Shown: piece by piece, positions 17,598-21,648 of the stretch
Layout: each line of letters starts with the position of its first letter
Position numbering within the stretch: the first letter of the stretch is position 1
Source of the DNA: an uncultured Oscillospiraceae bacterium
Lineage (GTDB): Bacteria; Bacillota; Clostridia; Oscillospirales; QAMX01
Assembly (NCBI GenBank): GCA_964461815.1
Contig: CAYWVF010000014.1
Span: 1,515 to 65,514 of the forward strand
DNA length: 64,000 nucleotides
Direction of reading: 5' to 3'
Made by a program: the position numbers and the translations under genes
The notes under the pieces: model-generated
The model's input: only the letters and a program-made list of their open reading frames with translations
Told to the model about the DNA's origin: nothing
The model's database searches: none

Positions 17598-18701
17598 GTG
17601 TATTTATATGTTCGAAAGAGTGAGATAGTGAATACTGAAATATTGAGGATAAACGATATAAAAGCGGATGCGGAAAACGTAAACCGTGCAGGCAGACTGA
17701 TACGGGACGGCGGTATAGTTGCACTGCCTACGGAGACAGTATACGGACTCGGTGCAAATGCGTTTGATACTGCCGCAGTTGCAAGAGTATTTGAAGCAAA
17801 GGGTCGCCCTGCCGATAATCCATTTATTGTACATATCTGCGAAAAGGAACAGATGGATGAGCTTTGTCGCGATATTCCCGATGAAGCAAGAGCACTTGCC
17901 GACAGTTTGTGGCCGGGACCGTTGACGATAATACTCCCGAGAAACAGATCTATTCCGGATATCGTCACCGCAGGTCTTGATACCGTGGGGATAAGATTTC
18001 CGTCGCACCCCATAGCACGTGCGATAATACGAGCCTCCGGCGTTCCCGTTGCGGCTCCGTCGGCAAACAGATCGGGAAGACCGAGTACAACGTCGTTTTT
18101 GCATACCTACGAGGATCTCAACGGCAGAGTAGACGCCATAGTTGATGGCGGTGATGCATACGCAGGAGTGGAATCCACAGTTGTTGAGATATCGGGCGAC
18201 AGACTCAGATTGCTTAGACCGGGAGTTATAACGCTTGATGATATCCGCATGTCACTTGAGGAAAGCGGATTCTCCGGCTACAGCATCGAGCTTGATGCTG
18301 CATTGAAGCGGAAGCTCGGAGAGAACGAAAGACCTCGTGCTCCGGGAATGAAGTACAGGCATTATGCACCGAAGGCTCCCGTAACGGCATTTACAGGCGA
18401 TGCAGATCAGACTGCCGAGGAGATAAGACTAAGAGCTCACGGAAAAGCAAATACGGCAGTGCTCTGCTTTGACGAATATAAGGATATGTTTGACCGAGCG
18501 GTGATATATGGCAGTAAAAATGATCAGGCAGCGCAGGCTCATGAGCTTTTTTCGGCACTGCGAAGCTTTGACAGTATGGATGATGTCGAGGAAATACTGG
18601 CTCAGTGTCCTGATGATGACGGAGTAGGACTTGCTGTCGCAAACAGACTGAAAAAAGCGGCAGGCTTTAATGTTATTAATATAAAGCGGGAAGAAAAATG
18701 A
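17598..18701 (+). CDS. tsaC: L-threonylcarbamoyladenylate synthase (Sua5/YwlC type, with C-terminal Sua5 domain)
   Basis: TETVYGLGANAFD...KGRPADNPFIVHI YrdC signature. Real start may be the GTG at 17628. Confidence 0.85.
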   Translation: MYLYVRKSEIVNTEILRINDIKADAENVNRAGRLIRDGGIVALPTETVYGLGANAFDTAAVARVFEAKGRPADNPFIVHICEKEQMDELCRDIPDEARALADSLWPGPLTIILPRNRSIPDIVTAGLDTVGIRFPSHPIARAIIRASGVPVAAPSANRSGRPSTTSFLHTYEDLNGRVDAIVDGGDAYAGVESTVVEISGDRLRLLRPGVITLDDIRMSLEESGFSGYSIELDAALKRKLGENERPRAPGMKYRHYAPKAPVTAFTGDADQTAEEIRLRAHGKANTAVLCFDEYKDMFDRAVIYGSKNDQAAQAHELFSALRSFDSMDDVEEILAQCPDDDGVGLAVANRLKKAAGFNVINIKREEK

Positions 18702-19300
18702 AGATAATCGGACTTACAGGCTCTACCGGAGCCGGAAAAAGTGCGGCATCGCGAATATTAAGCGCCATGGGCGCAAAAATAATAGACGCCGATGCTGTGT
18801 ATCACGATCTGCTTGAAAGCAGCAAGGCTATGAACTTCGAGCTCGAGAGAAAATTCCCGGAAGCATATGAGGACGGAAGACTCGACAGGAAAAAGCTGGG
18901 CAGGCTCGTTTTCGGCTCGCCCGAGGAAATAAAGATACTTAACCATATAACGCACAGGTATGTGATAAATGAGATAGACTCACTTCTGGAGAGGTACAGG
19001 ACGGAAAATGTCAATGCTGCCGTTATAGATGCGCCGCTGCTGATAGAAAGCGGAGCGGATAAGCTGTGTGACGTAACTGTTGCGATAACAGCACCTAAGG
19101 AGCTCAGACTTGAGCGCATTGCAGCGAGAGACAGCATAAGCCGAGAGTACGCCTCTCTCAGGATAGAGGCTCAGCCGGATGATGCATTTTACAAGAACCG
19201 CTGCACATATACTGTGGAAAATTCTTCGACTGAAGCTGAGCTTGAGAAAAAGATAAAAAAGATAATGATAAATATAATAGATCAGAAAGGAATAAGTACT
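18698..19300 (+). CDS. coaE: Dephospho-CoA kinase domain; reads in-frame, with no stop codon, into the next gene
   Basis: IIGLTGSTGAGKSAAS P-loop. About 200-aa CoaE fold. Overlaps tsaC by 4 nt. Confidence 0.7.
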
Positions 19301-20719
19301 ATGGAAAAAAAGACAAATGAACTTCGAGAAAAACTGTTTTATTCACGTAAAAACGGCTATGACTTGATAAGCCCGTCGGAGAAAAAGGCGGTGTACAGCT
19401 ATGCCGAGGGTTATAAGAAATATATGACACAGTCGAAGACAGAGCGTAAGGCTGTTACATGTACGATCGAGCTTGCAGAATCAAAGGGATTTGTACCGTA
19501 TACACGCGGCATGAAGCTGAAAGCAGGCGACAGAGTTTACACTGTAAACCGCAATAAATCTATGCTGCTTGCTATCATAGGCACGAAGTCAATGAATGAA
19601 GGTGTAAGAATTGTTGCGTCACATATAGACGCTCCGAGACTCGACCTGAAGCCGATGCCGCTCTACGAGGACGGAAAGGAAATGGCTTACTTCAAGACAC
19701 ATTATTACGGCGGTATCAAGAAGTATCAGTGGGTCACAATGCCGCTCGAGCTCCACGGTGTAGTTGCACTTAAGGACGGAAGCGTAGTTGACGTTGAGGT
19801 AGGCACACGTCCCGATGATCCCGTATTTGTTATCACAGACCTGCTTCCGCATCTCGGCAAGGATCAGGGTGCTAAGACACTCAACGATGCTATCGCAGGT
19901 GAAGGCTTGAATATCCTCATAGGCAGCGTACCCTCCGAATCGGACGAGGAAGGCTCCGACAGAGTAAAGCTTGCAATACTCGAATATTTATATGAAAATT
20001 ACGGCTTTACGGAGGCTGATTTCCTTTCGGCAGAGCTTTCGGCTGTACCTGCATATAAAGCTCGTGATATCGGCTTTGACAGAAGCCTTGTAGGTGCATA
20101 CGGACATGATGACAGAGTGTGTGCTTACGCTTCACTGACAGCACTGTTTGACCAGACGATACCGGAAAAAACATGCGTATGCGTGCTTGCAGACAAGGAA
20201 GAGATCGGTTCTATCGGCACGACGGGTATGCAGTCTGCTGTATTTGATACATTTATTAATGACCTTTGCAAGAACGACAACGCAGAGCTTATGGAGTGCT
20301 TTGAAAAATCAGCCTGCCTTTCTGCCGATGTCACGAATGCATTTGATCCGAATTTCGCAGAGGTTTCCGATACTAAGAACAGTGCATATATAAACTATGG
20401 CGTAGATATGATGAAGTATACAGGCTCCAGAGGAAAGTCCGGCTCGAACGATGCAGATGCAGAATACATTGCTCAGCTCAGAGAAGCATTCGATAAGGAG
20501 AATGTTATCTGGCAGACAAGCGAGCTCGGAAAGGTAGATCAGGGCGGCGGCGGAACAGTTGCAGGCTACATGTCGAACAGAAATATAGATACAGTTGATG
20601 TAGGCGTGCCTGTACTTTCAATGCATGCTCCGTTTGAGGTTATTTCAAAGCTTGACCTGTATATGGCACATAGAGCAATGTCGGCATTTTACGGCATGAA
20701 GGATGTCGAAGAAGAATAA
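19301..20719 (+). CDS. M18-family aminopeptidase; own ATG with GAAAGGAA ribosome-binding site, but in-frame continuation of coaE
   Basis: About 472 aa from MEKKTNEL. HIDAPRLDLKP and later metal-ligand regions typical of M18 aminopeptidase I. Confidence 0.7.
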   Translation: MEKKTNELREKLFYSRKNGYDLISPSEKKAVYSYAEGYKKYMTQSKTERKAVTCTIELAESKGFVPYTRGMKLKAGDRVYTVNRNKSMLLAIIGTKSMNEGVRIVASHIDAPRLDLKPMPLYEDGKEMAYFKTHYYGGIKKYQWVTMPLELHGVVALKDGSVVDVEVGTRPDDPVFVITDLLPHLGKDQGAKTLNDAIAGEGLNILIGSVPSESDEEGSDRVKLAILEYLYENYGFTEADFLSAELSAVPAYKARDIGFDRSLVGAYGHDDRVCAYASLTALFDQTIPEKTCVCVLADKEEIGSIGTTGMQSAVFDTFINDLCKNDNAELMECFEKSACLSADVTNAFDPNFAEVSDTKNSAYINYGVDMMKYTGSRGKSGSNDADAEYIAQLREAFDKENVIWQTSELGKVDQGGGGTVAGYMSNRNIDTVDVGVPVLSMHAPFEVISKLDLYMAHRAMSAFYGMKDVEEE

Positions 20720-20751: not shown

Positions 20752-21648
20752 ATGGAGCACGAGGATATATGTGTTATCCGTATGTGCGATAATCCCGATG
20801 GAGATCTGAATTTCTTCATTACGAAGTACAACACAAAGATTCGTGCCACGCAGAAGCATATGCATGAGTTTATGCAGATAAACTATATCCACAGAGGTAA
20901 GGCTATGCACTGTGTAAACGGGAAAAAATGTGAGGTAGTCAAGGGAGATATATTCGTGATACCGCCGCATGTCGTGCATTACATCGAGCCGTGTGATGAT
21001 ACGGATGCAGAGGTGGTGGAATTTGAATTCACACCGTCATTTATAAACCAGAATTTCGAAAATATAAAAAATGCGGAGGCTTTTCTCGATTTTGCATATA
21101 TAGCACCGTTTCTGGTGGATGAAAGTCTCGTAAAACCGAAATTCAATCTGGTCGGCTCGATACAGACTGAGGTCGAAAGCATACTGAATGAAGCATTGAA
21201 AGAATATGAGGAGCGCAAGCCCGGCTTTGTGCTCCTCGTGAAATCACTGCTTTTGAAGCTGCTGGTAATCGTAGGACGTGAGTTTACAAGCTATGTCGAT
21301 AATTCGAAATCGAAGCCGTTATACGAGAAGCACAGAGGCTTGATACTGGGTTCGATCGAGTATATAGAGCAAAACTACGATAAGGATTTGTCGATAGAAT
21401 TGGTCGCAAAGGAATTTACGCTGTCGCAGTCCTATTTCAGCTACCTGTTCAAGAGCATCACCTCTAAAACATTCACGGAATATCTCAACGGTATACGTAT
21501 TTCAAAGGCTCAGGAGATGCTCAAGCTTACCGATAAGCGTGTTATCGATATATGCTTTGAGGTGGGCTTTCATAACGTGAATCATTTCAACAGGATATTC
21601 AAGCAGATAACAGGTATTTCACCTGTGGTTTACCGCAAAAATAAATGA
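20752..21648 (+). CDS. AraC-family transcriptional regulator (cupin sensor + HTH)
   Basis: C-terminal double HTH_AraC (SQSYFSYLFK...GFHNVNHFNRIFKQITG). Confidence 0.8.
   Translation: MEHEDICVIRMCDNPDGDLNFFITKYNTKIRATQKHMHEFMQINYIHRGKAMHCVNGKKCEVVKGDIFVIPPHVVHYIEPCDDTDAEVVEFEFTPSFINQNFENIKNAEAFLDFAYIAPFLVDESLVKPKFNLVGSIQTEVESILNEALKEYEERKPGFVLLVKSLLLKLLVIVGREFTSYVDNSKSKPLYEKHRGLILGSIEYIEQNYDKDLSIELVAKEFTLSQSYFSYLFKSITSKTFTEYLNGIRISKAQEMLKLTDKRVIDICFEVGFHNVNHFNRIFKQITGISPVVYRKNK

Follow-up and report, generated by a model that had tools for sequence, protein, structure and literature searches.

A coaE::apeA fusion gene of an uncultured Oscillospiraceae bacterium, derived from stop-codon loss and probably retaining the start of the aminopeptidase

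A 64,000-nucleotide (nt) stretch of DNA from an uncultured Oscillospiraceae bacterium (GenBank assembly GCA_964461815.1, contig CAYWVF010000014.1, positions 1,515 to 65,514; the whole stretch is called the window below) carried a reading frame of 673 codons, in which the dephospho-coenzyme A (CoA) kinase gene coaE ran without a stop codon into apeA, the gene for an M18-family aminopeptidase. We consider this frame, with a probability of about 0.85, to be a genuine coaE::apeA fusion gene that holds the Shine-Dalgarno (SD) sequence and the ATG of apeA in its interior and probably has a second product. It is a bifunctional fusion that originated from stop loss between coupled neighbours and probably keeps the downstream start, and both halves are ordinary members of their families. 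The fusion is undescribed; no paper describing a CoaE-M18 or a Sua5-CoaE fusion was found in literature searches.

Identification of the fused gene

A preliminary description of the locus, made from the DNA letters, had reported a single stop-free composite open reading frame (ORF) of 673 amino acids (aa) with a complete CoaE including the P-loop GLTGSTGAGKS, the N-terminus of an M18 aminopeptidase following in frame, a ribosome-binding site 8 nt before the internal ATG, and a 4-nt overlap between tsaC and coaE. All of these features were recovered. The ORF listing gave the same frame (18698..20719), and the junction, ...ATA GAT CAG AAA GGA ATA AGT ACT ATG GAA AAA..., contained no in-frame stop codon in either the sequence or the listing. 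The P-loop motif was located at aa 5-15 within full-length family matches, the aminopeptidase began at M202, and the SD-like sequence GAAAGGAA was separated from the corresponding ATG by an 8-nt spacer (Table 1). The upstream Sua5/TsaC-type gene ended at 18701 and the coaE ATG was at 18698, forming an ATGA overlap, which is an arrangement typical of translational coupling. Translation from this ATG, which overlaps the sua5 stop, would give a polypeptide of ~75 kDa composed of an intact CoaE, a linker of six residues, and an intact ApeA.

Fused full-length relatives of the window protein were identified at 81% (P0002) and 69% (P0003) identity. The gene order sua5-coaE::apeA-araC-metG was shared, together with the fusion, by three loci of the same lineage (L081, L082, and L083), which were obtained from independent assemblies of two JGI metagenomes and one NCBI metagenome-assembled genome (GCA_012514045.1). 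Among the 120 best database matches, 108 were 640-700 aa long and contained both Pfam domains, and more than 100 protein clusters were fused. Within clusters defined at 90% identity, fused alleles were present on 148 contigs (P0157), 103 contigs (P0269), and 47 contigs (P0171). Further, a cultured type strain, Pseudoflavonifractor capillosus ATCC 29799, carries a fused protein (EDM98235.1; UniRef A6P085, 680 aa).

Properties of the two enzyme domains

The CoaE part was matched by Pfam CoaE (PF01121) at aa 3-178 (134.1 bits, cut-off 27) and by TIGR00152 at aa 3-188, with all 188 positions of the model included in the match (118.3 bits, cut-off 65.55). Its closest solved structure by sequence was 1uf9. 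In an alignment of 65 fused proteins, the P-loop residues G8, G11, G13, and K14 were invariant, as were the DxD aspartates and the lid arginines listed in Table 1. The roles given to these residues are those that we presume from CoaE structures.

The aminopeptidase part was matched by Pfam Peptidase_M18 (PF02127) at aa 242-665 and by the NCBIfam equivalog PRK02256 at aa 211-665 (649.3 bits, cut-off 529). The ApeB model PRK02813 scored 201 bits, under its cut-off of 356, and the enzyme was therefore assigned to ApeA and not to ApeB. In a sequence search against solved structures, 2glj_A matched this part with an E-value of 2.9e-138. The residues H309, D471, E501, E502, D544, and H643 were invariant in the same alignment of fused proteins; we take them to be the metal ligands and the catalytic base, mapped to DNPEP numbering through the presumed correspondence of motifs (HxD, DD, EE, SAD, SMH). 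Enzymes of the M18 family have binuclear metal ligands in the order H.D.E.D.H and a catalytic Glu, and form tetrahedral dodecamers (PMC3472314).

The ratio of nonsynonymous to synonymous substitution rates (dN/dS) between the window and L081 was ~0.09 for the CoaE domain and ~0.07 for the M18 domain, and on these estimates both domains are under purifying selection while fused. Synonymous sites among the window, L081, and L083 were saturated (dS of at least 1.3 or not computable), and no dN/dS is given for the window and L083 because of this saturation.

An AlphaFold2 model of the 673-aa protein had a mean predicted local distance difference test (pLDDT) value of 89.7 and a predicted template modelling score of 0.71. 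The pLDDT was ~95 in both domains (~90-98 in the M18 domain) and fell to 68-74 at residues 190-210, where a short break separated the helix at residues 179-195 from that at residues 201-213. The M18 part of the model was superposed by Foldseek on 2glf with a template modelling (TM) score of 0.93 and on 2glj with a TM score of 0.92. Identity between the window protein and that of L083 was 21-28% in the linker, against 59-75% in the two domains. Structure searches by sequence and with Foldseek found no solved chain that spans both CoaE and M18. Both activities are presumably kept in the fusion, which would also have to be accommodated, as we infer that it is, in the M18 dodecamer.

Operon context and distribution of the fusion

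Related loci were collected by scanning a profile of the fused proteins over GTDB species representatives and JGI/ENA metagenome contigs, together with additional look-ups, and were classified by tblastn and by walking reading frames. In the resulting 173 loci, coaE was directly upstream of apeA as a separate gene in 125 (hereafter split loci), the two were fused in 20 (13 non-redundant), and no coaE was found directly upstream in 27, of which eight were too close to a contig end to judge. The records from the scan were named as Oscillospiraceae, Acutalibacteraceae, Faecousia, Oscillibacter, Dysosmobacter, Flavonifractor, Butyricicoccus, and relatives. The gene sua5 was directly upstream of coaE in 106 of the 115 assessable related loci. 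The coaE stop codon and the apeA ATG of split loci were mostly within 20 nt of each other, including many overlaps of 4 nt (ATGA) and 8 nt, and the frame of apeA relative to that of coaE was uniformly distributed (43/42/40). Thus defined, sua5-coaE-apeA is a conserved compact operon in Oscillospiraceae and related Clostridia, and the fused state is a minority variant that accounts for approximately 10% of the non-redundant loci with coaE directly upstream of apeA.

A 50% clustering of 1.84 billion proteins gave only three full-length fused representatives among the best 150 matches. Nearly all remaining representatives among these matches lacked the CoaE part and were at most ~540 aa long; P0288 and P0392 were longer representatives without a Pfam CoaE domain.

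Two further arrangements were observed around apeA. P0288 is an M18 aminopeptidase of 676 aa whose N-terminal ~210 residues had no Pfam match and may represent a different or highly diverged partner. In some high-GC lineages, a gene encoding a membrane-anchored protein of 214 aa was located between coaE and apeA (L152, 2052..2696; L076, 3308..3952), and by eye its putative product looks like a lytic transglycosylase (SLT).

Origin and recurrence of the fusion

Closely related fused and split forms differed by one base, by either of two routes. The first was a C/CC indel (AAGGAGGaaCCaaacctATG vs AAGGAGGaaCaaacctATGA), found within the P0025 cluster (90% identity). Fused alleles in this cluster read caAGGAGGaaCCaaacctATGagc (six loci fetched; 14 contigs carry the protein), and split alleles, which encode proteins of 199 aa and 461 aa and came from other studies (three contigs), read caAGGAGGaaCaaacctATGAgc. 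The ATGA overlap is converted into an in-frame fusion by one C. The second route was a stop-to-Gln substitution, with CAA in place of TAA (CAAGGAGG vs TAAGGAGG), found in Pseudoflavonifractor, in which the fused form read ggg CAA GGA GGA aat atc ATG and the split form gag TAA GGA GGA aat aag ATG. The window junction, cag AAA GGA ata agt act ATG, was comparable to that of the split locus L001, which has both genes in the same frame (gag AAA GGA aac TGA att ATG). Judging from this comparison, a same-frame split arrangement like that of L001 must have been the former state of the window locus.

Fused and unfused proteins were interleaved on a neighbour-joining tree of 267 M18 domains, and Fitch parsimony on this tree gave at least 34 changes between the two states. 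Linkers also differed among the fused proteins, so the case for many independent events does not come from the tree count alone. Descent of all fused proteins from one ancient fusion was rejected, given the interleaving of the two forms and the occurrence of both one-base routes inside 90% clusters. Fusion is recurrent and labile in this group of gut and anaerobic Clostridia, and loss of the stop codon between tightly packed genes is its demonstrated route.

The route is as follows. In the split operon, the stop codon of coaE either overlaps with the start of apeA or precedes it by a few bases, and the 3'-terminal codons of coaE contain the apeA SD sequence. Nothing else separates the two frames, and one base change suffices to join them: a 1-nt indel if the genes overlap, or a stop-to-sense substitution if they already share a frame. 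Such stop loss has happened many times, including in the window lineage, where the fusion has persisted past the saturation of synonymous sites.

The upstream gene, sua5, enters fusions with equal ease. Among unfused relatives, the one closest to the peptidase of the window (P0117, 67% identity) was preceded by a Sua5::CoaE fusion of 538 aa (L173, 1372..2988), and a Sua5::CoaE fusion of 544 aa followed by a separate ApeA was found in L152 (481..2115). Triple Sua5 (YrdC domain)::CoaE::ApeA proteins of 860-872 aa were present on many contigs (P0004, P0057, P0061). All fusion combinations of the three-gene operon exist.

Members of the P0082 cluster with lengths of 340-384 aa (P0159, P0160, and others), among them those of 340 and 363 aa that at first resembled truncated alleles of the fusion, do not appear to be such alleles. 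P0159, the member compared, contained the Sua5 motif IPTETVYGL and had no significant similarity to P0082, and these short members were probably pulled into the cluster through triple fusions.

Probable internal start of the aminopeptidase

The strength of SD sequences was expressed as the energy of the duplex that nt -20..-4 form with ACCUCCUUU. The internal ATG of fused loci had a median of -8.5 kcal/mol (n=13), similar to the apeA start of split loci (-9.3 kcal/mol, n=106; p=0.36) and clearly different from other in-frame ATGs of the same genes (-3.0 kcal/mol, n=1683; p=2.8e-9), 9.9% of which were at -6 or lower. The linker ATG with its SD sequence was kept in all 13 non-redundant fused loci. 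At the protein level, 113 fused proteins were examined, and 110 of them had a Met no more than 16 aa ahead of the M18 core, as against 29% in random windows; K was at position -5 in 73 of these 110 and G or E at position -4 in 95, which corresponds to the translation of AAAGG or AAGGAG. Of the three proteins that seemed to lack this Met, two have one close by, and the third (P0056) has GTG codons after GAAGGGAAA. In the clade of the window, AAAGGA and the ATG were spaced identically (AAAGGA exactly 9 nt ahead) in the window, L081, and L083, although the spacer and the flanking codons all differed.

The SD sequence of the window itself (AAAGGA) had an energy of -5.9 kcal/mol; in the 64-kb window, SD sequences as strong or stronger were found at 59% of gene starts and at 8% of internal ATGs. 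The sequence gave no evidence for a separate apeA promoter inside coaE, as nine sigma-70-like sites were found against 9.6 expected by chance in shuffled sequence; a weak match of this kind just upstream of the internal ATG is listed in Table 1.

Internal initiation is documented in bacteria by a genome-wide survey (10.1101/520783). The conservation of the SD sequence and the ATG makes it likely that a separate ApeA is produced from ATG 19301: the old apeA SD sequence (19286-19291) and ATG would probably direct synthesis of an additional, stand-alone ApeA of ~52 kDa beginning at M202. This conservation supports the suggestion in the preliminary description of an additional, separate synthesis of the aminopeptidase at the internal start.

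Alternative explanations

Several points weigh against a genuine fusion with a working internal start. The proportions of locus classes are approximate, as they come from the best 80 of 600 matches listed per scan; protein matches are biased toward fused forms, the query being full length; and the count of 34 changes of state depends on the topology of the neighbour-joining tree. The SD sequence of the window is, with that of L081, the weakest among the fused loci, and the linker residues K and G could be conserved as amino acids and not as an SD sequence. Since CoaE exists only as part of the fusion, kinase activity must reside in the fused protein unless there is a second coaE in the genome; none was found within the 64-kb window, which, with the dN/dS of ~0.09, lends indirect support to such activity. 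The most elementary alternative is a sequencing or assembly artefact, i.e., a lost base or a miscalled stop at the junction, which the preliminary description had listed among its explanations and which could in principle mimic a fusion, given that a single base separates fused from split forms. This is extremely improbable. The same fusion and synteny occurred in three independent assemblies, in over 100 clusters, and in a type strain; the assemblies at 81% and 69% identity shared the fused state and the linker type, and in other species the contigs with fused alleles numbered from tens to hundreds, with one further case in an isolate genome. The search for a junction stop in orthologous loci, which the preliminary description had put forward as a check on the fusion, gave a divided result: the stop was present in the 125 split loci, and none was found in L081-L083 or the other fused loci. 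A genuine fusion and the loss of the coaE stop had been presented as separate explanations; both were supported, and they are not true alternatives, in view of the one-base routes and the purifying selection on both domains. It is also conceivable, and in our estimation rather unlikely, that only the full-length fusion is made, with all ApeA activity in the 75-kDa protein and the internal SD sequence and ATG being inert relics or kept for their amino acids. The weakness of the window SD sequence (-5.9 kcal/mol), which is matched by 8% of ordinary internal ATGs in the window, fits this alternative, as do the loss of the ATG in P0056, which has just GTG candidates, and the possibility that ribosomes elongating from upstream occlude the internal site. 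However, all 13 non-redundant fused loci keep the SD sequence and ATG at a strength similar to that in split loci, the window clade holds the AAAGGA/ATG spacing despite saturated dS and differing linker codons, and the Met was found in 110 of 113 fused proteins.

For the genuine fusion with a retained apeA start, the best reading is that operon compaction produced it and that it is tolerated and near-neutral. An adaptive fusion, in which tethering of CoaE to the ApeA particle would bring a functional advantage (e.g., a fixed ratio of the two enzymes, greater stability, or a connection of CoA synthesis with peptide catabolism), appears improbable. Some species appear to be fixed for the fused allele (all cluster members listed were 664-672 aa), fused clades extend down to 63-65% M18 identity, and the gene pair is strongly conserved, all of which would be compatible with adaptation. 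Nevertheless, the fused state makes up only ~10% of the non-redundant coaE-apeA loci, the three frame relations are equally common, clusters at 90% identity contain both fused and split forms, the deep all-fused clades carry ascertainment bias, and the fusion of sua5 to coaE in every combination points to compaction and not to a specific partnership. By our own rough estimate, 0.5-0.9 nonsense hits are expected in a linker of ~8 codons over the divergence of the window clade; the persistence of the fusion in this clade is therefore unsurprising and compatible with neutrality. To our knowledge, there is no biochemical link between CoaE and ApeA, which also counts against adaptation. Evidence for the fusion itself being adaptive was not found in the loci, clusters, and tree examined, with a protein search that favoured fused matches. 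A more elaborate and equally doubtful idea is a two-product gene under selection, in which long CoaE-ApeA and short ApeA (from M202) would co-assemble as mixed M18 dodecamers displaying a controlled number of CoaE domains on their surface, with selection keeping both the fusion and the internal start so as to set the ratio. If true, such mixed dodecamers would provide a physical connection between the final step of CoA synthesis and a self-compartmentalised peptidase.

Implications for annotation

Public records name the fused proteins inconsistently, as "aminopeptidase" or as "dephospho-CoA kinase". In an isolate genome of Pseudoflavonifractor intestinihominis (GCA_040096055.1; L179, 1862..3913), a continuous coaE::apeA ORF of 683 codons has CAA where a relative has TAA, and the recorded product is only an aminopeptidase of 470 aa from the internal ATG, with no coaE product on record. 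The coaE gene may look absent in fused genomes because only the aminopeptidase from the internal ATG is recorded, as in this case, and an essential gene can consequently appear to be missing from metabolic reconstructions of abundant gut Oscillospiraceae. In addition, the locus documents at the level of single bases the conversion of translationally coupled neighbours into multidomain proteins and back, with the initiation signals of the downstream gene surviving inside the fusion. This makes it a convenient natural system in which to study internal initiation and the dynamics of fusion and fission.

Features of the locus and flanking genes

The coordinates of the fused gene, its elements, and its neighbours are given in Table 1. 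The 5' end of sua5 is uncertain: the start at GTG 17598 gives 367 aa, as compared with 341-355 aa in relatives, and the true start is probably some codons 3' of this GTG.

Table 1. Elements of the coaE::apeA fusion gene and flanking genes, in positions of the window
Feature	Position	Strand	Remarks
Fused coaE::apeA ORF	18698..20719	+	673 codons, ATG start, TAA stop
CoaE (dephospho-CoA kinase) domain, aa 1-195	18698..19282	+	full-length Pfam and TIGR00152 matches
CoaE Walker A GLTGSTGAGKS, aa 5-15	18710..18742	+	
CoaE D30/D32 (DxD)	18785..18793	+	invariant in 65 fused proteins
CoaE R137/R140/R144 (lid arginines)	19106..19129	+	invariant in 65 fused proteins
Weak sigma-70-like match	19242..19269	+	TTGAGA, 16 nt, AATGAT (9/12); just upstream of internal ATG
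Linker QKGIST, aa 196-201	19283..19300	+	once coaE 3' end and intergenic spacer
SD-like GAAAGGAA for internal start	19285..19292	+	8-nt spacer before ATG
SD core AAAGGA	19286..19291	+	9 nt ahead of ATG 19301
ATG of M202, ancestral apeA start, probable internal initiation site	19301..19303	+	conserved Met and SD
ApeA-type M18 aminopeptidase part, aa 202-673	19301..20719	+	PRK02256, 2glj_A, Foldseek
Presumed metal ligands H309, D471, E502, D544, H643	19622, 20108, 20201, 20327, 20624	+	
Presumed catalytic base E501	20198	+	
sua5 (TsaC2-type threonylcarbamoyl-AMP synthase), first operon gene	17598..18701	+	Pfam Sua5_yciO_yrdC and Sua5_C
ATGA stop/start overlap sua5/coaE	18698..18701	+	ORF coordinates, sequence
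AraC-family regulator, outside the fusion	20752..21648	+	synteny marker common to L081-L083

Comparison with known systems

The coaE::apeA gene reveals no new kind of system; it is real but fairly ordinary, and each of its parts has well-characterised counterparts. Stand-alone ApeA ("probable M18-family aminopeptidase 1", HAMAP/NCBIfam PRK02256) is represented by structures from Clostridium acetobutylicum (2GLJ), Thermotoga maritima (2GLF), and Borrelia burgdorferi (1Y7E). Like these proteins, aa 211-665 of the window protein pass the equivalog cut-off, share the fold (TM scores of 0.92-0.93), and have the invariant ligand and catalytic residues. Solved or typical ApeA proteins are 440-480 aa long, whereas the window protein has an N-terminal CoaE plus linker of 201 residues. 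The CoaE part likewise resembles stand-alone CoaE (TIGR00152; 1UF9, 2IF2, 1JJV) in its full-length match and in its intact P-loop, DxD, and lid arginines, but its C-terminal helix, with no stop codon following, continues via six residues into ApeA.

Other proteins with a fused CoaE include the Sua5::CoaE and Sua5::CoaE::ApeA proteins described above, mycobacterial CoaE with a C-terminal domain (PRK03333; 6N39, 415 aa), and the mammalian PPAT-DPCK CoA synthase (2F6R). Like the window fusion, they indicate that CoaE is tolerated within a larger polypeptide. The partner differs, however: CoA synthase joins CoaE to the preceding enzyme of the pathway, and ApeA has no known link to CoA synthesis.

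With regard to the internal start, infB, clpB, and cheA are bacterial genes that yield two proteoforms via an in-frame internal start. The window gene is similar to these in having an in-frame internal ATG with its own SD sequence, conserved across relatives. Unlike in infB, clpB, and cheA, the internal start originally served a gene that was once separate, and its use is suggested here by conservation. Yeast prApe1 (5JH9) is likewise a subunit of an M18 dodecamer with an extra N-terminal segment, at ~20% identity. Its propeptide of ~45 residues is removed; in contrast, the extra segment of the window protein is a folded enzyme of ~22 kDa.

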